A stretch of 64,000 nt of DNA from Bacteroidaceae bacterium (GCA_963631715.1 CAVGRL010000006.1:6794-70793); one strand, 5' to 3'; counted from the first letter of the stretch, positions 239-40,002 are shown. Notes: a model not told the origin generated them from the sequence alone. A program made the numbers and translations.

Positions 239-2344
239 ATTACTACGTTCGCCGAACTCGGCCTTTCCGAGAACACCCTGGAAGCCGTCGATACGCTGGG
301 ATACACCGACGCAACCCCCATCCAGGAACAGGCAATTCCCTTGGTTTTGCAAGGCCGCGACCTTATTGCCGCGGCAAAAACCGGCACCGGCAAAACCGCA
401 GCGTTCTCGCTGCCTTCCATGGACCAGCTGCCCCATCGCGAGGGCAACGACCGCGGTCCTTTCATGCTGATCGTCACCCCCACGCGCGAATTGGCGAGTC
501 AGATTGCCGACACCTGCATGCCCATCGGCAAGCATACGCACCATTTCGTGGGCACCTTCGTGGGCGGCGTTGCCTACGGGCCGCAAATCAAGAAGCTTGA
601 GCGCGGGCTCGATGTGGCCATCACCACCCCCGGCCGCATGATCGACCTTATGGAGCGCGGCGCCGCCAACCTCTCCCAGGTGCAAGTGCTCGTGCTCGAC
701 GAGGCCGATCGCATGCTCGACATGGGCTTTTGGCCGCAAGTGCAGCGCATCGTCGAATCCACGCCCGAAGACCGCCAAACGCTGCTGTTCAGCGCGACCA
801 TCGACCGCAGCCAAGACAAAACCATGTTCAGCATCCTGAACGACCCGGCTATTGTGGAAATCGCGCACCGCGGCGAAACCGCCGATAAGGTCGACCAATA
901 CGTGATCAAAACCACGCGTCGCCAGAAGCCCGAATTGTTGAATTCGTTCATCAAAGAAAAGGGCGGCTATCGCGTTATCGTCTTCACCCGAACCAAGGGC
1001 GGCGCCGATAATTGCTGCAAACGCCTGCGCCGCATCGGCATTCCGGCCGAGGCGATTCATGCCGACCGCAGCCAGGCGCAGCGCAGCCGTGCGCTGAACA
1101 ACTTCCGCGAAGGCAAAACCCACGTGCTCGTGGCCACCGACGTGCTTGCACGCGGCATCGATGTACCCGAAGTCGACTACGTGGTGAACTACGATTTGCC
1201 CATGCTTCCCGAAGATTACGTCCACCGCATCGGACGCACGGGCCGCGCGGGCGCCGACGGCTTCGCCGTTTCGTTCGTCACTCCCGACACGCGCAATTTG
1301 CTGCGCAGCGTTCAGAAATTCACCGGCCAAGACATCCCCGAGATGAATTTCGAGATTTCGGAAGACGCCTTTGCGCCCATCGAAGGCGCTGATGAGCGCG
1401 TACTCGCCGATGACGACTCCTATTTCTTCGAGGAGAAGAAGGGCAAAGGCAAGCGCGGGGGCAAAAGCCATGGCGAAGGCAAATTCGACCGCGGCCGCGG
1501 CAAAGGCGGAAAGAAGGGAGCTCGCAAACGCGACATCGAGCGTTCTGCCGAGCACAAACGCAAGCTCGAAGCCGAAGCCAATGGCGAGGAATACATTCCC
1601 GCAAACCCGCACCATAACAACGGCGACCAGAAAAAGCGCAGCCTGAGCGAGCGCCAGGCCGCAGCGGATGCCGCCTATGCAGCCCTGTTCGATTCGCCGA
1701 ACGTTGAAGGCGGAAAGAAGAAATCCAAGAAGCGCAGCGGCGACGAGGGCGGCTATTCCTACGATTCGTTCTCGAAGAAGGGCGGGGCGAAAGGCAAGCC
1801 AGGCAAGCGCAGCCGCATGGCGAACCATGACGATCGCGACCTGGACGGCTTCCGCGAGAACCGCGGCGGCAACGGCCGCGTGCGCAAATACGACGACCGC
1901 GACAACCGCCGCAACGACGAGCGCGGCAACCGTGGCGGATGGGGCTCGCCCCGCAATGACGGCTACCAGCGCCGTGAGAGTTTCTTCGACGACGAGCAGG
2001 GTTCGAGCCACAATTCGCGCGGCAAGAAATACGCCGGCAAGCAGTATTCCGACGGCCGCGGCGGCAAACCGGGCAAGAAGAACTACGGCGGCCAAGGCGC
2101 AAGCAAGGGGCGCGGCGGCAACTTCGGCGGCAAGGGCTTCAGCGACCGCCCGAGCAATGGCGGCGGGCGCCCCGGCAATGGCGGCCATTCCGATGGCTTC
2201 CAGCGTTCCGGCAAAGGCGGGCAAAGCCGCAACAGCAACCGCGGAAACAATTTCGGCGGCCGCTCCAACGGCGGTGGCCGCAACTTCGGCGGCAACCGCA
2301 ACAGCAAGGGCGGCAATCGCCCCGGCCGCGGCGGCCGTCGCTAG
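239..2344 (+). CDS. DEAD-box ATP-dependent RNA helicase with a long Arg/Gly/Lys/Asn-rich C-terminal tail
   Basis: Track ORF 341..2344 has AKTGTGKT (motif I), VLDEAD (motif II), SAT and HRIGRTGRAG (motif VI). The frame is open back to TAA 212-214 and encodes the Q-motif region (TFAELGL...GYTDATPIQ) 5' of the listed TTG. No ATG/GTG/TTG lies in frame in 215-340. Start therefore placed at ATT 239, 6 nt after AAGGAG (227-232). The start codon is the uncertain part. Confidence 0.85.
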   Translation: MTTFAELGLSENTLEAVDTLGYTDATPIQEQAIPLVLQGRDLIAAAKTGTGKTAAFSLPSMDQLPHREGNDRGPFMLIVTPTRELASQIADTCMPIGKHTHHFVGTFVGGVAYGPQIKKLERGLDVAITTPGRMIDLMERGAANLSQVQVLVLDEADRMLDMGFWPQVQRIVESTPEDRQTLLFSATIDRSQDKTMFSILNDPAIVEIAHRGETADKVDQYVIKTTRRQKPELLNSFIKEKGGYRVIVFTRTKGGADNCCKRLRRIGIPAEAIHADRSQAQRSRALNNFREGKTHVLVATDVLARGIDVPEVDYVVNYDLPMLPEDYVHRIGRTGRAGADGFAVSFVTPDTRNLLRSVQKFTGQDIPEMNFEISEDAFAPIEGADERVLADDDSYFFEEKKGKGKRGGKSHGEGKFDRGRGKGGKKGARKRDIERSAEHKRKLEAEANGEEYIPANPHHNNGDQKKRSLSERQAAADAAYAALFDSPNVEGGKKKSKKRSGDEGGYSYDSFSKKGGAKGKPGKRSRMANHDDRDLDGFRENRGGNGRVRKYDDRDNRRNDERGNRGGWGSPRNDGYQRRESFFDDEQGSSHNSRGKKYAGKQYSDGRGGKPGKKNYGGQGASKGRGGNFGGKGFSDRPSNGGGRPGNGGHSDGFQRSGKGGQSRNSNRGNNFGGRSNGGGRNFGGNRNSKGGNRPGRGGRR

Positions 2345-2352
2345 CCGATAGC

Positions 2353-2392
2353 AAAATGGGTCAAAGGAATAACTCCTTTGACCCATTTTTTT
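2353..2392. terminator. Bidirectional intrinsic terminator between convergent genes
   Basis: ATGGGTCAAAGG (2356-2367) pairs perfectly with CCTTTGACCCAT (2375-2386) around a 7-nt loop. An A-run lies 5' and TTTTTT (2387-2392) lies 3'. Confidence 0.75.
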
Positions 2393-2505
2393 CGACCTCG
2401 CTACGCGCGGACCCGAGGCGTCCAGCTGCGAACATGCCATCGCCCAAGCGTCGATTCCTCGCGCCATTTGAGCCGAAGAAACAACCTCTTCGACCTAGCG
2501 CGTTC

Positions 2506-3456
2506 CTACATGATTTCGGGAACGATTTTAAACGCGATGGTGTATTGGTTGATGAGCGGCGCCGTATGCGTGAAGAATACGCGGCCGTTCACCGGCGACA
2601 CAAGCGCCTCTTTCGGCGTGGCGTCGAAGGAATCGAGCACCTCGCCCAAAACTTCGCCAGCCTCAACGCTGCGACCAGGCTCGACTTTGCTCATAAAGAA
2701 CCCGCCCGCGTGATGCGTTCTCACATTCACGAGGTTCTCTTCTTCGACATGGGTGGAAATAAACCCTCCCGGCACGCTGGGAAGAACAACGCCCAAATCG
2801 TGCAGGAATCGCACGATGCAATCGATGGCGAAAGCGGCCTCTCCCACATCGATGCAATCGGTCTTGCGCGTGAACAGCGAGAAGGCCAGGGTGTCCCACA
2901 CCTGCCAGTTATAGTTCAGGATCGTCGTATCGAACGAGCCGGGTTTTTTCGTCGACACATAGGGAAACCCGAAAGCATCGGCCATTTTCAGCGCCCGCTT
3001 GCTTATATCGCCAACTTCGGTGATGCGAACATGCGGAAGAAAATCACCCGGCAAATAATAGCTCGCCAGCTGAATGCCGCACGCATAATTCTTCACTTCG
3101 CGAAACAGTCCATCGGCGATGCGCTGCGTAGTTTCTCCAGCATCGTAGCCTGGAAACATGCGATTGATATCGGTGTTGTCAACCGCCCAAAAACGCTTGG
3201 CGATATTCATCGAAAACGCGTTGATGCTCGGGATTACAATCACACGCTTCCGGCTGTCGAGCATGCCGCGGCCCTCCATGGCCTGCAACCGGCGAATGAG
3301 CTCGGCGCAAATGAAGGTCTGCTGAACCTCGTTACCGCGCATCGAGCCCACGATTGCGCAGCATGCCTCCGCATCGGGCGAACCGAACTCCGCCGCTCGC
3401 AATTCAAGGGGCTCGCGATAGGGGGTTTCAAGAGTGAACAGGGATTTCTTTCTCAT
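2506..3456 (-). CDS. Succinylglutamate desuccinylase/aspartoacylase (AstE/AspA, M14-like) family protein with degenerate metal-ligand positions
   Basis: 316-aa ORF that aligns by eye with the upstream paralogue (AIVGSMRGNEVQQ vs AIVTGVHGDELEG; GIQLAS vs DIHAS). Its ATG overlaps the stop of the upstream gene by 4 nt. Confidence 0.7.
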   Translation of the reverse strand: MRKKSLFTLETPYREPLELRAAEFGSPDAEACCAIVGSMRGNEVQQTFICAELIRRLQAMEGRGMLDSRKRVIVIPSINAFSMNIAKRFWAVDNTDINRMFPGYDAGETTQRIADGLFREVKNYACGIQLASYYLPGDFLPHVRITEVGDISKRALKMADAFGFPYVSTKKPGSFDTTILNYNWQVWDTLAFSLFTRKTDCIDVGEAAFAIDCIVRFLHDLGVVLPSVPGGFISTHVEEENLVNVRTHHAGGFFMSKVEPGRSVEAGEVLGEVLDSFDATPKEALVSPVNGRVFFTHTAPLINQYTIAFKIVPEIM

Positions 3457-4382
3457 TGGACATCACCTAGGATTCGAGCGAGCAACGAACCCGGATACAC
3501 AATCGGATATTCGCGCAGCGTGAACAGCAGTCCATCGCGTTCGGCTCGCACCTCTTCGCGCACCTCGCCCGAAAGCGGATCGGCAATCACGCCGATGAGC
3601 TGTCCACGCTCGACCATCGAAGCATGTTCTGCCTTGGGAAGGAATACGCCGGCGGTATTGGCATTAAGGTAACCAACATCGCCGTCGCGCGACACGATAG
3701 GCTGCTCATCTGACACGAACTCCCCGTGCCAAATGCCCAAATGAGAAGCAAGTCGCAAAATGCCTTGCACAAGGCGTTCCCCGTAATCTTGCGTTATGCG
3801 CATGCCGACGCCCGTCTCGACCACCAAACAGGGCGTCCCGACCGAATTAAGGGAATAGGCAAGCGTGCTTTGCAATACCGTAGCCGATGCGTGCACCCAA
3901 ACGTAATCGACATTGAGCAACGGAGCGAGCGGCAAAAGCGTTTCGGCCGAAAGCTCGTTGATTCGCACTTGGGGCATCTCGCGCAGGAAAATGTTGCTCG
4001 CATGAATATCGACAGCCGCCGCAGCGCCACGAATGTCTTTGAATACGGCAGCGGCAAGGGTCTCGGTAAGAGCGCCCTGGGCATCGCCCGGAAACGTGCG
4101 ATTCAGATCGAGGTCGAATGTCGGCACGCTGCGCTGGATGGAATTGATGCCGAGCGGATTTATTGCCGGGTAAATATCGAATGACCCCGTGATTTTGTCG
4201 AGGTTCGCTTGCAAAAGCCGGCCGAGCTCGAACGCGACATATTGCCCCTCTAGCTCATCGCCATGCACGCCCGTGACGATAGCCATGCGGGGGCCGTCGC
4301 CAGCCGTGCCGCAAATGGTGTTCTTTTGTATGAGCAGATGCTCGCCAATAGGAAGCTCCGCCGAAAACACGGTCTGTATCAC
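3453..4382 (-). CDS. Succinylglutamate desuccinylase/aspartoacylase (AstE/AspA) family zinc deacylase
   Basis: 309-aa ORF with the family signature GVHGDELEG (HxxE) and a later DIHAS histidine. Lies in the operon downstream of the transglutaminase-like gene. Confidence 0.75.
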   Translation of the reverse strand: MIQTVFSAELPIGEHLLIQKNTICGTAGDGPRMAIVTGVHGDELEGQYVAFELGRLLQANLDKITGSFDIYPAINPLGINSIQRSVPTFDLDLNRTFPGDAQGALTETLAAAVFKDIRGAAAAVDIHASNIFLREMPQVRINELSAETLLPLAPLLNVDYVWVHASATVLQSTLAYSLNSVGTPCLVVETGVGMRITQDYGERLVQGILRLASHLGIWHGEFVSDEQPIVSRDGDVGYLNANTAGVFLPKAEHASMVERGQLIGVIADPLSGEVREEVRAERDGLLFTLREYPIVYPGSLLARILGDVQ

Positions 4383-4409
4383 ACCGAGAACCTTCTTCTA
4401 GCCAGCGAT

Positions 4410-5204
4410 TCACGACATTGCATCGTTGCCTGAAACGCTTACCGATACGCGTTGGTCTTGCCTTGCCCCGCCGCGGAAAACCCCCACTTCAATGGGGCAG
4501 TCGGAAAAATCGCGCCCATGGGAAAACGCTATATAGCCGTCGTTGACAAGGCAATCGTTCGTGGGGTCTATGCCCCGCCAGTATTCGCCATCATACACTT
4601 CAACCCACGCATGGGTCGCGCCTTCTCCAACCATAAGACCATTCACATAACGTGCCGCCACGCCTGCCGAACGGCATAACGCGATAAGCACATGGGCGAA
4701 ATCTTGGCACACGCCACGCTCCGCCGCAAATGCCTGCGCCGCAGTTGTGGAGACGTCGGTCGCGCCGGGAACGTATTCCATGCGATCGTGCAACGCCTTG
4801 GAAAGGCGGCACGCCTTCGCCATGGGGGACGCATTTCCCATCACGCGTAAAACATCGCTGGAAAATGAGCGAATGGCCTCGTCTGCGAATGCGCGCGGTG
4901 AATACTGCCCGAAAACGGGATGGGCGAGTTCACGCTTTCCAGCAGGGGTTTCATCGACCACGACAAGCCCGCTTGCAATGAAATCGAACTCTTCGTGCGG
5001 CTGTTCTATGCGCCCGATGCGCAACTCGTTGCCAAACCCGTCGCGCTGGGAGCTCACGTTGGCACTCGGGGCCAAAATCAGCTGCGACTCGAGCACCGTT
5101 TGCAAAGGAGTCGTGCGTGGAAGGCATCGGAGCACAAAATCGTGGCTTTCGACCGGTTCGCTGAAGCTCAGCGTGGTTTCAAAGGTGAAATTGAGTATCC
5201 TCAA
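4410..5204 (-). CDS. Transglutaminase-like cysteine protease/ligase domain protein
   Basis: 264 aa. Has the Cys-His-Asp triad context GVCQDFAHV ... THAWVEVY ... GIDPTND, preceded by an N-terminal domain typical of bacterial transglutaminase-like proteins. Confidence 0.85.
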   Translation of the reverse strand: MRILNFTFETTLSFSEPVESHDFVLRCLPRTTPLQTVLESQLILAPSANVSSQRDGFGNELRIGRIEQPHEEFDFIASGLVVVDETPAGKRELAHPVFGQYSPRAFADEAIRSFSSDVLRVMGNASPMAKACRLSKALHDRMEYVPGATDVSTTAAQAFAAERGVCQDFAHVLIALCRSAGVAARYVNGLMVGEGATHAWVEVYDGEYWRGIDPTNDCLVNDGYIAFSHGRDFSDCPIEVGVFRGGARQDQRVSVSVSGNDAMS

Positions 5205-5223
5205 AGCGACCTCTTTTCCGCCG

Positions 5224-5907
5224 CTAGAAGATGCGGGCTATGCATTCCAGCAGCTCACCAAGCTGCTCATAGGTCGCGTTCGCCTGAAAACCAGGGGCGA
5301 ACACGATATCGACCACACGCTTGAAGGCGGCCTTGTCGTAAGGAACGCCAATACGGTCGATGCGGCTCGCAAGACGATGGGTTTCTTGGCGAAGTTGCCC
5401 AAGGCGATACGAAAGGCGTGCATACAAGTCGAGGCGTTCGATGGAGATGCCGCATTTGATGATGTTTCGAGCGGCATCATCGGCCACGTAATCGTCGACG
5501 CTGCCCTTAAACGCCATGACGTCGTCGAGCATGCTTTGCAAATCAACGAGTGGGGCATCGGAATTGCGTGCCGCCTCGATGCTGTTTTGAGCCATCTGAA
5601 CATAGGCGATGCTCTCGGTTCCCAAAACGTCTCGCAGCGTTACCGCATTGCCATAGGCGGCATCCATCGAATGCGCCAAAGAGCTCGGATGATCCATGTC
5701 AAAAAGGCACGAACGGAAAAACTGGATGGGGTCGTCATTTTCTTGGTCGAACCCAAGTTCTTCCAACTGGCCTTTCCAATTGCCCTCAACCGAATCGAGG
5801 GCCGCATCGTAGGTCGACAGAATGAAATGAAGGGTGGTTTGGCTGCGCTCGACATAACGGCCAAGCCACAGCAGATGGTCCACCTTTTCTAGCGACAAAG
5901 AACCCAT
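5224..5907 (-). CDS. Alpha-E domain protein (DUF403-like)
   Basis: From ATG 5907 the protein begins MGSLSLEKVDHLLWLGRYVERSQTT, matching the alpha-E N-terminal W(L/M)GRY(V/L)ER signature. The 284-aa version in the track would overlap the upstream gene by about 190 nt. GGGAGGAGGG lies 11 nt upstream of 5907. Confidence 0.7.
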   Translation of the reverse strand: MGSLSLEKVDHLLWLGRYVERSQTTLHFILSTYDAALDSVEGNWKGQLEELGFDQENDDPIQFFRSCLFDMDHPSSLAHSMDAAYGNAVTLRDVLGTESIAYVQMAQNSIEAARNSDAPLVDLQSMLDDVMAFKGSVDDYVADDAARNIIKCGISIERLDLYARLSYRLGQLRQETHRLASRIDRIGVPYDKAAFKRVVDIVFAPGFQANATYEQLGELLECIARIF

Positions 5908-7208
5908 GTGTCTTTGAACCCTCCTCCCTGGGACGAATTCACCACGCTCGAACCGGCTTGGCGTGAATAGCGAGTAAGGCCGCTTGGCCACACGGTCGTC
6001 GTCTCGCCGGAAAGCACAAACGCGCGAAGATCGGCCTTGCGCGGCACCATTTCCCCGCCAATCCATGTGGGAAGGCATTTGAAGTCGATGACCTCCTGCG
6101 CAATGAAGCGCCGCGGCTCACGCCGAATAAGCGATTTGAGGCTCTCGAGCTTCTCGGAAGAAAGCTCGCTTCCGAAAACCACGCCATAGCCGCCGGCCTC
6201 GGCAACATCTTTGATCACGAGTTTGTCGGCATTTTCTTGCACGTAGGCCATATCGTCGTCGTAAAACGGCAGATATGTGGGGGCGTTTTTCAGAATGGGC
6301 TTTTCGCCCAGGTAATATTCGACCATCTTGGGAACGAAATAATAAATTCCCTTGTCATCGGCCGCCCCATTGCCGGGGGCATTCACGATGGCAACGTTGC
6401 CAGCGCGATAGGCCGCCATAAGGTTCGGCACGCCGATAAGGCTTTCCGGCAAAAAGCACAGCGGATCGAGATATTCATCGGACAAGCGTCGATACACGGC
6501 TCCAACACGGCGATTTGCGGCGGCATCGCGGAAGAAGAGCGTGTCATTTTCGACGAACAGCTCGCTTGGCTCAGCAAGAACCGCGCCCGCTTTCTCGGCG
6601 AGATACGAATGCTCGAAATAGGCGGCGTTATAGCGACCCGGCGTAAGAATCACATTGATTCCGCCGCGATTCACGTTGTCCATCACTGCCTTCAGGCGAG
6701 CGCCGTAATCGCGATTGTCCCGAATGGCAGACCCTCGAAACGTGCTCGCGTTGCAGCGGCGGCACAAATCGCGCGCAATAAGCGGATAGCTCGCCCCCGA
6801 GGGAATGCGCAGGTTATCCTCGAGCACGTACCACTCGCCGTCTTCGCCTTCCACCAAATCGATTCCCGAAATATGGCTATAGATTTTTCCCGGCGGCTTA
6901 ATGCCTTCGCACTGGGGCAAATATCCGCTGCTCGCAAAAGCGAAATCGCTCGGAACCACACCATCGGCGATGATCTGCTTTTCGCCATACAGATCGCACA
7001 AATACGCATTCAATGCATCGACGCGCTGGATGAGGCCGGCTTCGAGGCGCTCCCACGATTCGGCCGAAATAATACGCGGCACGGCATCGAAGGGAAACAG
7101 CCGCTCGTTGAACTGCCCGTCTTTATAAAGGCCGAATTTCACGCCATAGCGTGCGAGCTGCGCGTTTATTCGCGGCGTATGTTCGACGAGGTTGTCGTAA
7201 ATCTCCAT
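5889..7208 (-). CDS. Circularly permuted ATP-grasp (type 2) family amidoligase
   Basis: From ATG 7208 (SD GAAGGGGG upstream) the protein begins MEIYDNLVEHTPRINAQLARYGV... This is the usual partner of alpha-E plus transglutaminase genes. The longer 527-aa track ORF would run into the terminator of the upstream gene. Confidence 0.8.
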   Translation of the reverse strand: MEIYDNLVEHTPRINAQLARYGVKFGLYKDGQFNERLFPFDAVPRIISAESWERLEAGLIQRVDALNAYLCDLYGEKQIIADGVVPSDFAFASSGYLPQCEGIKPPGKIYSHISGIDLVEGEDGEWYVLEDNLRIPSGASYPLIARDLCRRCNASTFRGSAIRDNRDYGARLKAVMDNVNRGGINVILTPGRYNAAYFEHSYLAEKAGAVLAEPSELFVENDTLFFRDAAANRRVGAVYRRLSDEYLDPLCFLPESLIGVPNLMAAYRAGNVAIVNAPGNGAADDKGIYYFVPKMVEYYLGEKPILKNAPTYLPFYDDDMAYVQENADKLVIKDVAEAGGYGVVFGSELSSEKLESLKSLIRREPRRFIAQEVIDFKCLPTWIGGEMVPRKADLRAFVLSGETTTVWPSGLTRYSRQAGSSVVNSSQGGGFKDTWVLCR

Positions 7209-7308
7209 GGGCTGCCCCCTTCGCAATCGGCGCAATGGGCTCATTGTGGCAGCGGTCGATTTCAAGAAGATGAACGCCCCGTCACGGCAACGTGAACGAA
7301 CGCAAGGC

Positions 7309-7351
7309 AAAAAAGAATCGGGCCGAAGCGCCAAAGCCCCCAGCCCGATTC
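7309..7351 (-). terminator. Intrinsic terminator after the MetE-like gene
   Basis: On the minus strand, GAATCGGGC ... GCCCGATTC forms a 9-bp stem followed by TTTTTT (complement of A-run 7309-7314). It lies 24 nt after the stop at 7375. Confidence 0.6.
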
Positions 7352-7374: not shown

Positions 7375-8511
7375 CTATGCGCCCCATACCTCGACGGCAA
7401 TTTCTTGGATGAGCGCGATTTTCGCCCACTGCTCTTCCTCGGTAAGCTTGTTGCCAATTTCGCAGCTGGCAAAGCCGCACTGCGGCGAGAGGAACAAGTT
7501 CTCTAGAGGAACATAGCGCGAAGCCTCCTTGATGCGAGCCTTCACGGCCTCTTTGCTTTCAAGCCCAGGCTGTTTTGACGTGATAAGGCCCAATACCACC
7601 TTCTTGCCCTCGGCAACATACTTCAAAGGCTCAAAGCCGCCCGCGCGCGGCGTATCGAACTCCAGATAGAATGCGTCCACGTTCTCGTTCGCGAACAAAT
7701 ACGGTGCGATGGGGTCATAGCCGCCCTCGAACGCATACGTGGAATGGTAGTTGCCGCGACACACATGAGTATTGATTACAAGGTCTTCCGGAGCGCCTTC
7801 AATGGCCGCATTGTTCAACGCCACGCCGAGCTCGCTCACTTTTTGGATATCGACCGGCTGCATGCCCGTTTTCTCAACGAAATCGGTGTCGCAATAAATC
7901 CCCCACGTGCAATCGTCGAATTGGATGTTGCGGCATCCGGCGGCATACAGATCGGCAATCACCGTGCGATACGCCGCCGCAATCGCATCGACCAGCGCCT
8001 CGTCCGTCGAATATACCGCGCGCAGGCTTTCCTGCTGCCCATCGCAGCGATCAAGCGTGACCTCCGAGAACGTCTGAATCGGCGCCGGCATGGTTTGGCG
8101 GGCCACGCGATCATCGCCCGCGAGCGCGTTTACGAACTTGAAGTGTTCGACGAACGGGTGATTCTCGCCAGAAATAGCGCCTGTCACCACAGCGGTGTCG
8201 GCCGTGGTCTCTTCATCGTGGAACATATAGCCTTCACGGCTCGCGCGACGCTCGATGCCCTGCAGCCCCCACATGAAATCGAGATGCCAATAGCTGCGAC
8301 GGAATTCCCCATCGGTCACGACCTTCAAACCTGCAGCTTTTTGCTTTGCCACCAAATCGCGAATGGCAACATCTTCAACGGTTTTCAATTGCGCGGCGTC
8401 AATAACGCCGGCATTGAAGTCGGCACGCGCTTGTTTCAGCACGTCGGGGCGCAAAAAACTCCCCACAATATCGCAACGGAACGGTGCGGTGGTTTCGCAA
8501 GAAAGAGCCAT
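7375..8511 (-). CDS. Cobalamin-independent methionine synthase family protein (MetE C-terminal-domain-only, YxjG/YxjH-like)
   Basis: 378 aa. N-terminus FRCDIVGSFLRP, DGEFRR motif, and Zn-ligand contexts NTHVCRGN and SPQCGFAS typical of the MetE catalytic domain. Confidence 0.8.
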   Translation of the reverse strand: MALSCETTAPFRCDIVGSFLRPDVLKQARADFNAGVIDAAQLKTVEDVAIRDLVAKQKAAGLKVVTDGEFRRSYWHLDFMWGLQGIERRASREGYMFHDEETTADTAVVTGAISGENHPFVEHFKFVNALAGDDRVARQTMPAPIQTFSEVTLDRCDGQQESLRAVYSTDEALVDAIAAAYRTVIADLYAAGCRNIQFDDCTWGIYCDTDFVEKTGMQPVDIQKVSELGVALNNAAIEGAPEDLVINTHVCRGNYHSTYAFEGGYDPIAPYLFANENVDAFYLEFDTPRAGGFEPLKYVAEGKKVVLGLITSKQPGLESKEAVKARIKEASRYVPLENLFLSPQCGFASCEIGNKLTEEEQWAKIALIQEIAVEVWGA

Positions 8512-8668: not shown

Positions 8669-9577
8669 CTATCGCTCCTGCGGAATATGCCGACGAATCG
8701 CTTCGACGTACGCAGCCCCGTATATCGAACGCTGTGTGCCCTTACGCGCAACGAGCCCCACTTCCATGTATTCGTCGATATCGAGCGGAACAGACACGAT
8801 CGATGGGCCATTCAGCTCGGCGCTGATAACGCCCGAACATACCGTGTAGCCATCGAGGCCGATGAGCAAATTGAACAGCGTGGCCCGGTCGCGCACGCGA
8901 ATATTTTTCCGACGATCAAGCGTTGAGGTCAGTTCCTCGGAATAATAAAACGAGTTATAGCTTCCCTGTTCATATGACAAAAACGGGTAGTCGGCCATGT
9001 CGTCGATCGTCACCGAAGCCCGGTTGGCGAGCGGATGCTCCGAGCAGACGAACACATGCGGCTCGGCGCGAAACAACGGCTCGAACACGAGCTCATTTGC
9101 GGCAATCGTCTTTTCGATGACCTCGCGATTGCGCGCCGATAAATACAGCACGCCAAGTTCGCTTTTCATATGCGTCACATCTTCGATGATTTCGTGCGTT
9201 TGCTCTTCGCGCAACGTGAAATCGTAGCGCTCGGCATCGAATTCGCGAATCACATCGACGAACGCGTTCACCGCAAACGAATAGTGCTGGCACGAAACGC
9301 TGAAATGGGGCACCCTCTGGCTCGTTTTCTTGTACTTGCCTTCCAGCAGCTCAGCCTGATCGAGCACTTGCCGAGCGTAGCCCAGAAACGTTTCGCCCTC
9401 TTCGGTCACCACAACGCCCTTATTAGTTCGATCGAAGATATGAACGCCCATTTCACGCTCAAGATCGCGAATCGAACTCGTGACGGAAGGCTGCGACACA
9501 TACAGCCTGCGCGCCGCCTCGGTAACGCTGCCATATTCGGCGACGTTCACGGCATAGGTAAGCTGCTGAAGTTTCAT
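8669..9577 (-). CDS. LysR family transcriptional regulator
   Basis: 302 aa. N-terminal HTH MKLQQLTYAVNVAEYGSVTEAARRLYVSQPSVTSSIRDLE followed by a substrate-binding-domain-sized C-terminus. Confidence 0.9.
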   Translation of the reverse strand: MKLQQLTYAVNVAEYGSVTEAARRLYVSQPSVTSSIRDLEREMGVHIFDRTNKGVVVTEEGETFLGYARQVLDQAELLEGKYKKTSQRVPHFSVSCQHYSFAVNAFVDVIREFDAERYDFTLREEQTHEIIEDVTHMKSELGVLYLSARNREVIEKTIAANELVFEPLFRAEPHVFVCSEHPLANRASVTIDDMADYPFLSYEQGSYNSFYYSEELTSTLDRRKNIRVRDRATLFNLLIGLDGYTVCSGVISAELNGPSIVSVPLDIDEYMEVGLVARKGTQRSIYGAAYVEAIRRHIPQER

Positions 9578-9685: not shown

Positions 9686-11761
9686 TTAATTACCGGCAGC
9701 GCGGCGTGCCTCGTATTCGGCGGCAAGCTTCTTTTGCACATCGGCGGGAACCTGCTCGTAGCCATCAAGCTCCACGGTATAGCTGCCCGACCCGCGCGAA
9801 ATGCTGCGCAAATCTTTCGTATAGCTCACGACCTCGGCATACGGAACGCGCACCATGATGACCGTTTCGCCGGCGTCGTTGGAATCGGTGCCTATGATGC
9901 GCCCGCGGCGCGTGGAAATATCGCCCATCACCGCACCTGCGAACTGCTCGCCCACGGCGATGCTCATCGTGGCCATGGGTTCAAGCACGACGGGCGATGC
10001 CTGTTCGCATGCCGCACGAAAGCCGATGCGCGCAGCCGTCTTGAAAGCCATTTCGTTGGAATCGACCGGGTGATACGACCCATCGAACACGGTGCACTTT
10101 ATATCGACCATGGGATAGCCGGCCACAACGCCTTCGAGCATGGCCTCTTGAACGCCCTTGTCAACAGCCGGAACTAGCCCGCCGGGAATTGCGCCGCCCT
10201 TAATCGCATCGACGAATTCGTAGCCTTCGCCGGGGTTTGGCTCAAGTCGCAGCCAACAATCGCCGAACTGCCCAGCACCGCCGGTTTGCTTTTTGTGGCG
10301 CCCTTCGGCTTCGGCCGCCTTGCGAATGGTTTCGCGATACGGTATTCGCACGTCAACCAACCGAGCCTCAACTTTTACCTGCTCGCGCAATCGATTGAGC
10401 AGGCAATCGACCTGGGCTTCGCCCATAGCGGTTATCACGGTTTGGTGGGTGTCTTCGCGCCGCTCGATGCGCACGGTCGGGTCGTTTTCGGCAACGCGTG
10501 CCAAAAACGTTCCCAGCTTGTCTTCCTCTTTCTTGTTCGCGGCCTCGATAGCGACCGGATATTGGGGAATCGGGAATGGCAACGGCGCGATGGCGATATT
10601 GCCCCGAGCGGAAAGCGTATCACCTGTGCGCGTTTCGGAAAGCTTCGGAACAACAATGATGTCGCCCGCCATGGCGCTTTTCACCGCAGTCGTCTCTTTG
10701 CCCTTCATCACGCACACATGCCCCAAACGCTCCTTCTTGCCCGTTCGGGCATTCTGGAGCTCAAGCCCCGGCACAACGGTTCCCGAAAGAACCTTGATGA
10801 AACTCAGGCGGCCGACATACGGGTCGGCCAGCGTCTTGAACACAAAGCCCGCAGGATCGCCCTCTTTCGTCACGAGCACTTCGCCGCCATCGGCGGTAAG
10901 AATGGGGCCATGGGCCGTGGGGTGCGGGAAATACGTGCAGATGTCTTCCATGAGGCCTTGAATTCCCTGCTTGACGATGGTCGACCCAACGAAAACGGGA
11001 ATGAAGAGCTCTTGGGCGATGGCTTTGTCGAGCAGGCCTTCGAGCTCGTCTTGCGTGAGCTGCTCTTCGCCGTCGAGGTACTTCATCATAAGCTCGTCGT
11101 CGGCCTCGGCGACAAGGTCGCACAGCTTGTCGCGCGCCACCTGCGCCTGGTCGAGGTATTCGTCGGGAATATCTTCCACGCGCTCGGCGTCGCCTTCGAA
11201 ATAGCGCGCTTTCATACGCAGCACATCGATAACGCCCTTGAAATCTTTGTCAACACCGATGGGGATGGTCACAACCCCCAAACGCGCGCCGAAGCGGGCA
11301 TGCAATGTCGCCATGATCACATCGAAATTCGCATGCTCGCGATCGATGTGGTTAATGAAAACCGACCGCGACAGACGCATGGTTTCGGCCTCGCGCCACA
11401 ATTTCGTCGTCATGACCTGTGGACCCTCGACGGCATCGACGACGAACATGGCCATTTCGGCAGCATGCATAGTGGCAAGCGTGTCGCCGATGAAGTCGGG
11501 GTGGCCCGAGGTATCGAGCAAGTTGATCTTATAATCTTTATACGGAATGGGCGCAATCGATGTGCCCATGGTGAATTTGCGCTTGATTTCCTCGGCATCG
11601 TAGTCGAGGTACGATTTTCCGTCGTGCGTCGTGCCCATGCGCGGCGTTTGGCCGGAAATATAAAGCATGGCCTCGGCCAGTGAAGTTTTGCCCGCACCAT
11701 CTTGTCCGACCAGCACGATGTTGCGGACATGCAACGTCTCGGGAGCTGCCATCGATACCAC
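9686..11761 (-). CDS. Elongation factor G paralogue (EF-G II-like) with divergent GTPase motifs
   Basis: 691 aa, full five-domain EF-G length. G1 GQDGAGKTS, G3 DTSGHPDF, G4 INHID. GTG start at 11761 lies 5 nt after AGGAAG. It is not in an str-operon context. Confidence 0.85.
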   Translation of the reverse strand: MVSMAAPETLHVRNIVLVGQDGAGKTSLAEAMLYISGQTPRMGTTHDGKSYLDYDAEEIKRKFTMGTSIAPIPYKDYKINLLDTSGHPDFIGDTLATMHAAEMAMFVVDAVEGPQVMTTKLWREAETMRLSRSVFINHIDREHANFDVIMATLHARFGARLGVVTIPIGVDKDFKGVIDVLRMKARYFEGDAERVEDIPDEYLDQAQVARDKLCDLVAEADDELMMKYLDGEEQLTQDELEGLLDKAIAQELFIPVFVGSTIVKQGIQGLMEDICTYFPHPTAHGPILTADGGEVLVTKEGDPAGFVFKTLADPYVGRLSFIKVLSGTVVPGLELQNARTGKKERLGHVCVMKGKETTAVKSAMAGDIIVVPKLSETRTGDTLSARGNIAIAPLPFPIPQYPVAIEAANKKEEDKLGTFLARVAENDPTVRIERREDTHQTVITAMGEAQVDCLLNRLREQVKVEARLVDVRIPYRETIRKAAEAEGRHKKQTGGAGQFGDCWLRLEPNPGEGYEFVDAIKGGAIPGGLVPAVDKGVQEAMLEGVVAGYPMVDIKCTVFDGSYHPVDSNEMAFKTAARIGFRAACEQASPVVLEPMATMSIAVGEQFAGAVMGDISTRRGRIIGTDSNDAGETVIMVRVPYAEVVSYTKDLRSISRGSGSYTVELDGYEQVPADVQKKLAAEYEARRAAGN

Positions 11762-12829: not shown

Positions 12830-14140
12830 ATGACCCAATCATATTCCACCCAGATGGAAGCCGCCAAACAAGGCATCATTACCCCGCAGATGGCCCATGT
12901 CGCCGAAGACGAGGGAATCGATGCCGATATCATCCGCGATCGCGTTGCGCGCGGAACCATCGCCATTCCGGCCAACCATAACCATCCTGCCCTCGTTGCC
13001 CGCGGCGTAGGCGAAGGGCTCAGGACGAAAATCAACGTGAACTTGGGAATCTCGGGCGATGAGCACGATTACGACTGCGAGATGCAGAAGGTCAAAACGG
13101 CGCTCGAATTCGACGCCGAAGCCATCATGGACCTGTCCAATTACGGCAAAACGCACGATTTCCGCCGCGCGCTTATCGACATGTCGCCGGCAATGATCGG
13201 CACCGTTCCCATGTACGATGCCGTAGGCTACCTGGAAAAAGACCTCGCACACATCTCTGCCCAAGACTTTTTGGATGTGGTGCGCGCCCATGCCGAAGAG
13301 GGCGTCGATTTCGTCACCATCCATGCGGGACTCAACCGAAAATCGATCGACAGCTTCAAGCGCAGTGGACGCATGATGAACATCGTGAGCCGCGGCGGAA
13401 GCCTCATTTACGCTTGGATGGAAATGACCGGGAACGAAAATCCGTTTTTCGAGCACTTCGACGAGCTGTTGGATATTCTCTACGAACACGACGTCACCAT
13501 TTCGCTTGGCGATGCGCTGCGCCCGGGCTGCGTGAGCGATTCGACCGACGCGGGACAGGTCAGCGAGCTGATCGAACTGGGCATCCTCACCAAGCGCGCA
13601 TGGGAGCGCAACGTGCAGGTCATGATCGAAGGCCCCGGGCACATGGCGATGAACGAAATCGCCGCGAACATGCAGATTGAAAAGCGCCTGTGCCACAACG
13701 CGCCGTTTTACGTGCTCGGCCCGCTGGTGACCGACATTGCACCGGGCTACGACCATATCACTTCGGCGATCGGCGGAGCGATTGCCGCCGCGAACGGGGC
13801 CGATTTTCTTTGCTACGTGACCCCGGCCGAGCACCTGCGCCTTCCCAGCGTACAAGATGTGCGCGAGGGCATCATCGCCTCGAAGATCGCCGCTCATGCA
13901 GCCGATTTGGCAAACGGCGTGCCCGGCGCGCGCGACTGGGACGACCGCATGGCGCGCGCACGGCAGCGCCTCGACTGGAATGCCATGTTCGACGAGGCGA
14001 TTGACCGCAAAAAAGCCGAGGAATACGTCGCATCGACCAACCCGCACGACCCGAGCACATGCACCATGTGCGGAGCAATGTGCTCGGTACGAACCATGAA
14101 CAAGGCGATGAGGGGTGAAAACGTCAGCCTTTTGCCATAA
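12830..14140 (+). CDS. thiC: Phosphomethylpyrimidine synthase ThiC (short anaerobe-type radical SAM enzyme; a BzaF-like paralogue cannot be excluded)
   Basis: From ATG 12830 (AAGGAAG 6 nt upstream): [21 protein letters not shown]..., conserved core, and C-terminal Cys cluster CTMCGAMC. Confidence 0.85.
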
Positions 14141-39915: not shown

Positions 39916-40002
39916 GCGGGCGTGGCGGAATTGGCAGACGCGTACGGTTCAGGTCCGTATGGGGGCAACCCCATGAAGGTTCAAGTCCTTTCGCCCGCAC
40001 CA
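39916..40002 (+). tRNA. tRNA-Leu (anticodon CAG), CCA encoded
   Basis: Acceptor GCGGGCG/CGCCCGC. Anticodon stem TACGG/CCGTA with loop TTCAGGT. Long variable arm (GGGG..CCCC). T-arm GAAGG-TTCAAGT-CCTTT. Discriminator A plus CCA. Confidence 0.92.

Follow-up and report, generated by a model that had tools for sequence, protein, structure and literature searches.

What chemistry is carried out by one of the most widespread bacterial gene neighbourhoods without a known reaction? We address this question with an operon at positions 2506-7208, on the minus strand, of a 64,000-nucleotide (nt) stretch of DNA from a Bacteroidaceae bacterium (GCA_963631715.1 CAVGRL010000006.1:6794-70793), the whole of which is called the window below. 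The first three genes of the operon encode a circularly permuted (CP) ATP-grasp protein, an alpha-E protein and a transglutaminase-like protein, a triad that occurs in Mycobacterium tuberculosis (Mtb), pseudomonads, cyanobacteria and, here, gut and rumen anaerobes; the last two encode AstE-family proteins that we call AstE1 and AstE2. We find that the operon is a member of this known, functionally orphan triad system, distinct by its short alpha-E protein, by having no Anbu (a proteasome-beta-like N-terminal nucleophile (Ntn) hydrolase that is a frequent but optional associate of the triad) and by an AstE pair in which one member is predicted to be catalytic and the other probably is not. Its genes, with protein lengths in amino acids (aa), are as follows.

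5889-7208, minus strand: ATP-grasp protein, 439 aa from the ATG at 7208.
5224-5907, minus strand: alpha-E protein, 227 aa, starting MGSLSLEK.
4410-5204, minus strand: transglutaminase-like protein, 264 aa, with a TTG start.
3453-4382, minus strand: AstE1, 309 aa, with a GTG start.
2506-3456, minus strand: AstE2, 316 aa, overlapping AstE1 by 4 nt (ATGA).

These five co-directional open reading frames (ORFs), called on the window, meet at junctions of -19, +19, +27 and -4 nt in gene order; recomputing them returned the same junctions that the initial annotation had given, and we regard the tightly packed five-gene cluster as confirmed. Its layout and the terminators on either side favour co-transcription, and it is a probable operon. 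Starts were chosen to agree with the gene calls in orthologous clusters, whose gene lengths match as well; the longest possible ORF for ATP-grasp extends to a TTG at 7472 and that for alpha-E begins at 6078. Most of the ~80 loci described below share the 19-nt overlap of ATP-grasp with alpha-E and the 4-nt overlap of AstE1 with AstE2, and both junctions look translationally coupled. The conservation of these two overlaps suggests that the proteins form two stoichiometric pairs.

Profile searches support the domain assignments proposed earlier for all five proteins, ATP-grasp and alpha-E included. The ATP-grasp protein matches the Pfam families CP_ATPgrasp_2 (1.1e-136; 456 bits against a cut-off of 32) and CP_ATPgrasp_1 (9.4e-124; 413 bits against 23), and its nearest solved relative is PDB 3n6x (1.3e-118), which is labelled 'putative glutathionylspermidine synthase'. 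We rejected an identity as glutathionylspermidine synthetase, as only the CP_ATPgrasp families were matched at E<=0.01 and the label of 3n6x is itself 'putative'. The alpha-E protein matches the Pfam family Alpha-E (3e-21; 76.9 bits against a cut-off of 20.8) over profile positions 7-165 of 294 only, which is the first ~55% of the model, and its orthologues are 222-231 aa long in nearly all loci; judged from these gene calls, the alpha-E protein here is a short form of ~227 aa. It contains the motif GRYVER, and G-R-Y-x-E-R is retained in 79-82 of 82 orthologues. The AlphaFold2 (AF2) model of the protein is all-helical, with a predicted local distance difference test (pLDDT) score of 91.9, and a Foldseek search of the PDB with this model returned no match (best E 0.44). 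Matches by sequence to designed toroid proteins were judged spurious, which leaves alpha-E with no real PDB relative by sequence. The transglutaminase-like protein matches Transglut_core (4.4e-20) and Bact_transglu_N (2e-14), has PDB 3isr, a 'putative cysteine protease', as its nearest PDB relative (1.2e-14) and retains Cys166, His198 and Asp213 in 74-75 of 76 orthologues, making it a candidate hydrolytic arm within the triad itself.

The operon thus contains a CP ATP-grasp gene, an adjoining alpha-E gene whose product carries the ER motif and an adjoining gene for a transglutaminase-like protein with Cys-His-Asp, and in family, order and motifs it matches the conserved neighbourhood that had been predicted previously, as the initial annotation recognised. 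Neither the cluster in the window nor the sequence downstream of triad-only loci holds an Anbu gene. Searches of the full text of the literature returned no defined product for the triad, in agreement with what had been stated, and no report that ties an AstE pair to it, within a coverage that excludes the original paper of Iyer et al. 2009. Structural papers on Anbu repeat the prediction made in 2009, a system for peptide synthesis or peptide tagging composed of a putative peptide ligase and a peptidase; they also describe induction by nitrogen limitation in Pseudomonas, and they report that Anbu was left unmodified on co-expression with its operon partners. The sole experimental mention of triad proteins that we found is negative, a 2026 preprint according to which Mtb Rv2411c and Rv2567 do not make gamma-aminobutyric acid (GABA)-trehalose.

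The two AstE-family proteins differ in what they have kept of the family active site. AstE1 matches AstE_AspA_cat (5.2e-23; 82 bits against a cut-off of 25), has the PDB relatives 3na6, 2qj8, 3cdx and DoeB (6twm and 6twl) at ~1e-13, and retains His40, Glu43, Arg95, His127 and Glu189 in 66-67 of 67 orthologues, that is, the His-x-x-Glu motif, the second His, the catalytic Glu and the carboxylate-binding Arg. We predict that AstE1 is a catalytically competent AstE/AspA-family (M14-like) zinc (Zn) hydrolase. None of the NCBIfam equivalogs was reached: the DoeB model TIGR02994 matches AstE1 at 6e-17 with a score of 61.6 against a cut-off of 402.7, and the aspartoacylase model NF002601 scores 17.5 against 180. 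Chains of CphZ, the beta-Asp-Arg dipeptidase of the family, match AstE1 with E ~1e-4 over ~58 residues of the N-terminal stretch.

AstE2 matches AstE_AspA_cat more weakly (1.1e-08; 35.3 bits against 25). In every orthologue from the loci (67/67) and every homologue from databases (59/59), its first Zn-binding His is replaced by Arg, its second His by A, C, T, G or S, and its catalytic Glu by Y, F or L; the Glu of HxxE (Glu43) and Arg99 are retained, such that the substrate-carboxylate-binding Arg is present in both paralogues. The AF2 model of AstE2 (pLDDT 91.4) matches 3cdx in Foldseek (6.6e-22; template modelling (TM) score 0.77) and matches DoeB and CphZ too; AstE2 is predicted to have the family fold but not to be a functional member. 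Many polar residues are invariant, including those in GETTQR, PHVR and NYNWQVW, and the protein is under strong constraint. Because two Zn ligands and the catalytic Glu are lost in all orthologues, AstE2 is probably a conserved partner of AstE1 that is non-catalytic or, at the least, non-canonical. The earlier description of two M14-like deacylases therefore stands for both proteins with regard to fold but not with regard to function, only AstE1 having kept the catalytic residues. The AstE2 clade is small: among 1.84 billion, 159 representatives reach E<=1e-30, and many of these are fragments; more distant full-length relatives grade into other non-canonical catalytic sets. We note that several such relatives (P0306, P0319, P0331, P0334 and others) keep the Zn-binding His-Glu-His and have Gln (or His, Leu or Met) in place of the catalytic Glu; judged by these residues, departures from the canonical active site seem to be frequent in this branch of the family.

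To what extent do the five genes belong together? Scanning one genome of each species with the ATP-grasp protein as anchor yielded 80 loci in Coriobacteriia (Slackia, Adlercreutzia, Olsenella, Collinsella and others), Lachnospiraceae, Oscillospiraceae/Faecalibacterium, Negativicutes (Succiniclasticum, Selenomonas, Anaerovibrio) and Treponema; 66 of the 80 were informative in having enough downstream sequence. By its nearest relatives, the bacterium from which the window comes belongs to Coriobacteriia and is probably Eggerthellaceae-like. All five genes are present in identical order in 55/66 of these species loci (83%); the remainder comprise the triad alone (8), loci in which only the transglutaminase-like gene is missing (2) and an internal deletion (1). 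An independent scan of metagenomes anchored on AstE2 also gave 80 loci, and among the 45 with enough upstream sequence 38 have all five genes (84%) and five have the AstE pair alone. AstE1 adjoins AstE2 in every locus with visible sequence upstream of AstE2. AstE genes thus accompany the triad in 83-84% of loci from two independent anchors, and the survey that the initial annotation had suggested shows that they are not incidental neighbours.

Identity across phyla is 67-85% for ATP-grasp, 52-74% for AstE1, 40-65% for AstE2, 35-60% for the transglutaminase-like protein and 31-78% for alpha-E, and the flanking genes vary from locus to locus. When all ORFs of 85 loci were clustered, no sixth conserved gene, precursor peptide, transporter or regulator emerged; what it did group were shadow ORFs and, at inconsistent positions, generic genes for ABC ATPases or LysR. 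An alternative hydrolase, Anbu or another, was considered for the triad-only loci and rejected, the genes downstream being housekeeping genes. Since the same five genes recur in the same order in dozens of species between unrelated flanks, the gene set is a conserved module beyond chance. With the triad or the AstE pair on its own in ~12% of loci each, the cluster brings together two modules that can be separated, the triad and the AstE heteropair; the combination is typical of anaerobes of the gut and rumen.

Several loci depart from this arrangement. In two of them (L073 and L076, 6788-12906) the transglutaminase-like gene is cleanly absent and ATP-grasp, alpha-E, AstE1 and AstE2 are kept; two co-directional ABC ATPase genes, each encoding ~330 aa, a size like that of oligopeptide-transporter components, lie directly upstream. 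In Oscillibacter valericigenes An890 (L072, 10293-11903), alpha-E residues 1-146 are joined to the C-terminal ~80 residues of AstE1; this copy is decaying, an internal deletion having removed the transglutaminase-like gene. The AstE pair moves as a unit: in Parvibacter caecicola (L004/L005, 7295-9938) its order is inverted, AstE2 preceding AstE1, and it is separated from the transglutaminase-like gene by a 191-aa gene on the other strand that has no Pfam match, and in L022 (12041-14117) both genes of the pair lie on the opposite strand. Four metagenome loci (L143, L147, L158 and L160) have an additional AstE1-like gene upstream of the cluster, on the opposite strand, and L048 (2290-3093) has one, ~25% identical, upstream on the same strand as the cluster. 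A gene for an M18 (aspartyl-type) aminopeptidase adjoins the cluster in L006/L007 (1027-2376) and a stand-alone AstE pair in L097 (4370-5767), a recurrence seen twice only, which points weakly at best to acidic peptides.

None of the RNA sequencing runs searched contains the sequence of the window. We therefore turn to the orthologous cluster of Succiniclasticum ruminis (L044), of whose words rumen metatranscriptomes hold up to 47%. Contigs from four rumen metatranscriptomes span each of its four junctions and cover its five genes to a similar depth, which shows, from this orthologue, that the module is expressed in vivo, and which is compatible with a single transcript. Rumen contigs from two runs (X5 and X12) represent strain variants of L044 in which 79 nt of the spacer between alpha-E and the transglutaminase-like gene (10953-11033) and 154 nt just downstream of AstE2 (13848-14003) are missing.

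We propose that the operon consists of two modules that jointly make and break one amide linkage, peptide or isopeptide, a reading that is our preferred one and to which we would nonetheless assign slightly less than an even chance of being correct. The ATP-grasp protein, probably in complex with the translationally coupled alpha-E protein, would activate a carboxylate as an acyl-phosphate and join it to an amine; the transglutaminase-like protein, with its Cys-His-Asp set, would cleave or transfer the resulting amide linkage; and a heteromer of catalytic AstE1 and non-catalytic AstE2 would hydrolyse a small end product back to building blocks. The substrate of AstE1 may be a unit that resembles an N-acyl amino acid or an iso-dipeptide and has a free alpha-carboxylate, because the characterised relatives (DoeB, AstE, aminoacylase 3 and CphZ) act on small N-acyl amino acids or dipeptides. 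The logic of such a scheme would parallel that by which cyanophycin passes from its synthetase, an ATP-grasp enzyme, to cyanophycinase and on to the AstE-family enzyme CphZ. As far as conserved residues can indicate, the catalytic sets of the ligase, the thiol enzyme and the Zn hydrolase are intact, that of AstE2 is not, and the linkage of the genes is conserved; what we infer is which proteins form complexes, in what order the steps occur and that AstE1 acts on a small molecule. That the modules are separable, as seen in the loci with the triad alone, in those with the pair alone and in L073/L076, fits successive steps of which the last can be dispensable or replaced. The ligation/deligation cycle put forward in the initial annotation, with the AstE genes as its hydrolytic arm, we likewise infer, in altered form: the AstE genes are indeed linked to the triad, but because the Cys-His-Asp protein is already a candidate hydrolytic arm, the AstE pair is better read as a second, downstream step.

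Several considerations weigh against this proposal. Every one of its steps is predicted, and the literature searches returned no product for any member of the triad. The heteromer is deduced only from the overlap of the two genes and the dimeric nature of a relative, and AstE2, given its invariant polar residues, may be more than a passive partner and possess its own activity. There is no conserved neighbouring transporter, regulator, precursor-peptide gene or riboswitch that would hint at the substrate. Finally, the RNA from L044 consists of unstranded assembled contigs of an orthologue, for which carry-over of DNA is possible.

The alternative that survives best, one that we consider unlikely, is a system for tagging proteins or peptides, as comparative genomics first predicted, in which ATP-grasp/alpha-E would couple a peptide or amino acids to a carboxylate or amine group of a protein and the transglutaminase-like protein and AstE1/AstE2 would be de-tagging peptidases. 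AstE1/AstE2 would then trim the added residues in the manner of a carboxypeptidase, as the M14 cytosolic carboxypeptidases (CCPs) do opposite the TTLL glutamylases, and would fill the slot that Anbu occupies in the proteobacterial clusters. This would agree with the description of the operon in the Anbu literature as a putative peptide ligase and peptidase system, with the position of the AstE pair directly after the transglutaminase-like gene and the absence of an Anbu-like gene from any locus examined, with an M14 fold that AstE1/AstE2 have in common with true carboxypeptidases (Foldseek ranks 34-50) and with the retention of the carboxylate-binding Arg in both paralogues. However, none of the characterised AstE/AspA-family members that we found acts on proteins, the neighbourhood holds no conserved candidate gene for a target or a tag, and no modified form was obtained in the published attempt to co-express Anbu with the other proteins of the operon.

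A bolder and rather improbable version of our own proposal is that the ATP-grasp/alpha-E complex of gut and rumen anaerobes makes a new isopeptide compound or polymer, or a reversible amino-acid tag, which is broken down in two tiers, the last step being performed by an obligate heterodimer of an AstE hydrolase and a pseudoenzyme that provides substrate recognition. If true, this would give a 15-year-old orphan triad a defined chemistry.

We find it highly doubtful that the operon protects and deprotects an amine during its utilisation, in which case an ATP-grasp enzyme like glutathionylspermidine synthetase would acylate a polyamine or other amine nutrient and AstE1 would remove the acyl or aminoacyl group last, like AstE, DoeB and PuuD. 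The label of the closest solved structure, putative glutathionylspermidine synthase, points in this direction, as do the closest named relatives of AstE1, which are terminal deacylases of catabolic pathways (DoeB, TIGR02994, 6e-17; PDB 6twm), and the reported link of the triad to nitrogen limitation or NtrC in proteobacteria. Against it, the module has no oxidoreductase, aminotransferase or transporter to carry out the intermediate work, the DoeB equivalog score is far under its cut-off, and GSP_synth is not among the Pfam matches. That the AstE pair is merely adjacent to the triad and has no substrate in common with it is very improbable indeed: the triad occurs without the pair in 8/66 loci and the pair without the triad in 5/45, where lone pairs stand beside such unrelated genes as those for an ABC transporter, an aminotransferase, the M18 aminopeptidase and FapA, but order and strand are the same in 83-84% of loci from two anchors and several phyla, with variable flanks and short gaps, RNA contigs span the transglutaminase-like/AstE1 junction in the orthologue, and the very small AstE2 clade is found mostly in this context.

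The operon lies between two intrinsic terminators and behind a short leader.

7309-7351, minus strand: intrinsic terminator of the upstream MetE-like gene, a 16-pair hairpin followed by UUUUUU.
7209-7308, minus strand: leader of ~100 nt, with an AAGGGGG Shine-Dalgarno sequence a few nt before the ATG at 7208.
2353-2392, both strands: bidirectional intrinsic terminator, a perfect 16-bp stem flanked by an A-run and a U-run.

Both hairpins, which the initial annotation had named as the bounds of the operon, fold strongly. The upstream one (-27.4 kcal/mol, z -3.6) ends the MetE-like gene (7375-8511) and is the upstream operon boundary. The downstream one folds on both strands (-31.4 and -27.7 kcal/mol, z -7.3 and -6.9), can terminate both ways given the A-run and U-run around its perfect stem, and is common to the operon and a convergent DEAD-box helicase gene (341-2344, plus strand; helicase domains matched). 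A simple scan for consensus terminators missed both of these bounding hairpins and, for internal terminators, gave no excess over shuffled sequence (16 found vs 17 expected). The ~100-nt leader must hold the operon promoter; a consensus scan reports no sigma-70 site in it, and it has no significant RNA structure (z -0.35). A riboswitch or leader RNA upstream of the operon was rejected, with no Rfam match and no significant fold, as was membership of a defence system (0/5 proteins match PADLOC models). We also set aside a mobile origin: there is no plasmid match, and the GC content of the cluster is ~0.55-0.57, slightly under that of its flanks.

Long ORFs (352-438 aa) run antisense to the operon genes at 2356-3672, 4747-5892 and 6237-7295, all on the plus strand; there is no indication that they are genes, and in other loci antisense ORFs at similar positions appear only as shadows of the conserved genes. 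In the closest relative (L008, ATP-grasp 97% identical) a LysR gene (3237-4255) lies directly upstream of the operon, whereas in the window the MetE-like gene (Meth_synt_2, 7375-8511, minus strand) and its own terminator stand between the LysR gene (8669-9577) and the operon; the presence of the MetE-like gene is an insertion/deletion difference between near relatives. Two genes upstream of the operon is a paralogue of elongation factor G (EF-G) with all five EF-G domains (9686-11761, minus strand), which is also present in L008. The only Rfam match at gathering level in the window is a tRNA (39916-39999, plus strand).

The orphan system is left unsolved by this analysis; its chemistry is constrained, and cultured, tractable carriers of it are pointed to, among them Olsenella uli DSM 7084, Succiniclasticum ruminis DSM 9236, Parvibacter caecicola and Adlercreutzia. 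The addition of the AstE family, whose characterised members all split small N-acyl amino acids or iso-dipeptides, limits what the product can plausibly be in chemical terms, and the AstE catalytic/non-catalytic pair would be a clear bacterial enzyme-pseudoenzyme partnership in the M14-like family. Compared with the known triad neighbourhood (COG2308/COG2307/COG1305, the 'Anbu operon' of proteobacteria, and Mtb Rv2411c-Rv2409c and Rv2567-Rv2569c), the operon has the same three families in the same order and orientation, keeps the ER motif and Cys-His-Asp, and has an ATP-grasp protein that matches the family structure 3n6x. It differs in lacking an Anbu/Ntn-hydrolase gene, in its short alpha-E, in the AstE1/AstE2 pair that follows the transglutaminase-like gene and in its hosts, which are strictly anaerobic gut and rumen Coriobacteriia, Clostridia, Negativicutes and Treponema.

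Making and breaking of one amide bond by a paired ligase and thiol enzyme is also the principle of glutathionylspermidine synthetase/amidase (GspSA), in which the bond made by a permuted ATP-grasp-type amide ligase is broken again by a papain-like/CHAP thiol amidase. The ATP-grasp and transglutaminase-fold enzymes here would embody the same concept; unlike in GspSA, they are separate proteins, the GSP_synth Pfam model is unmatched at E<=0.01, and alpha-E and the AstE pair have no counterpart. With DoeB/EutE N-acetyl-L-2,4-diaminobutyrate deacetylase, AstE, aspartoacylase and aminoacylase 3, AstE1 has in common the fold, the Zn triad, the Glu and the Arg, and DoeB and other AstE/AspA enzymes are its best relatives in sequence and structure; however, AstE1 scores far under the equivalog cut-offs, and its context is unrelated to ectoine or arginine catabolism.

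The cyanophycin system offers a further parallel. There, the genes for the ATP-grasp synthetase CphA1, a first hydrolase and CphZ lie together in a cluster, and other enzymes can take over the last step (PMC9974463), which, if the same held here, would explain the loci that lack the AstE pair or the transglutaminase-like gene. CphZ is an AstE-family beta-Asp-Arg dipeptidase, a homodimer whose substrate derives from the ATP-grasp-made polymer and whose Zn site (H50/E53/H179) and essential E251 have been shown experimentally (PMC9974463). In the operon described here, too, an ATP-grasp ligase gene is clustered with a candidate first hydrolase and an AstE/AspA Zn hydrolase, the enzyme that in cyanophycin breakdown splits a small isopeptide; AstE1 has the H-E-H and Glu set of CphZ, and CphZ is among the fold matches. 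The ligases are non-orthologous, permuted and GspS-like here as against CphA1, the first hydrolase would be a transglutaminase-fold Cys enzyme and not a serine cyanophycinase, AstE1 matches CphZ weakly (E ~1e-4), and where CphZ is a homodimer, this operon encodes what is probably a catalytic and non-catalytic pair.

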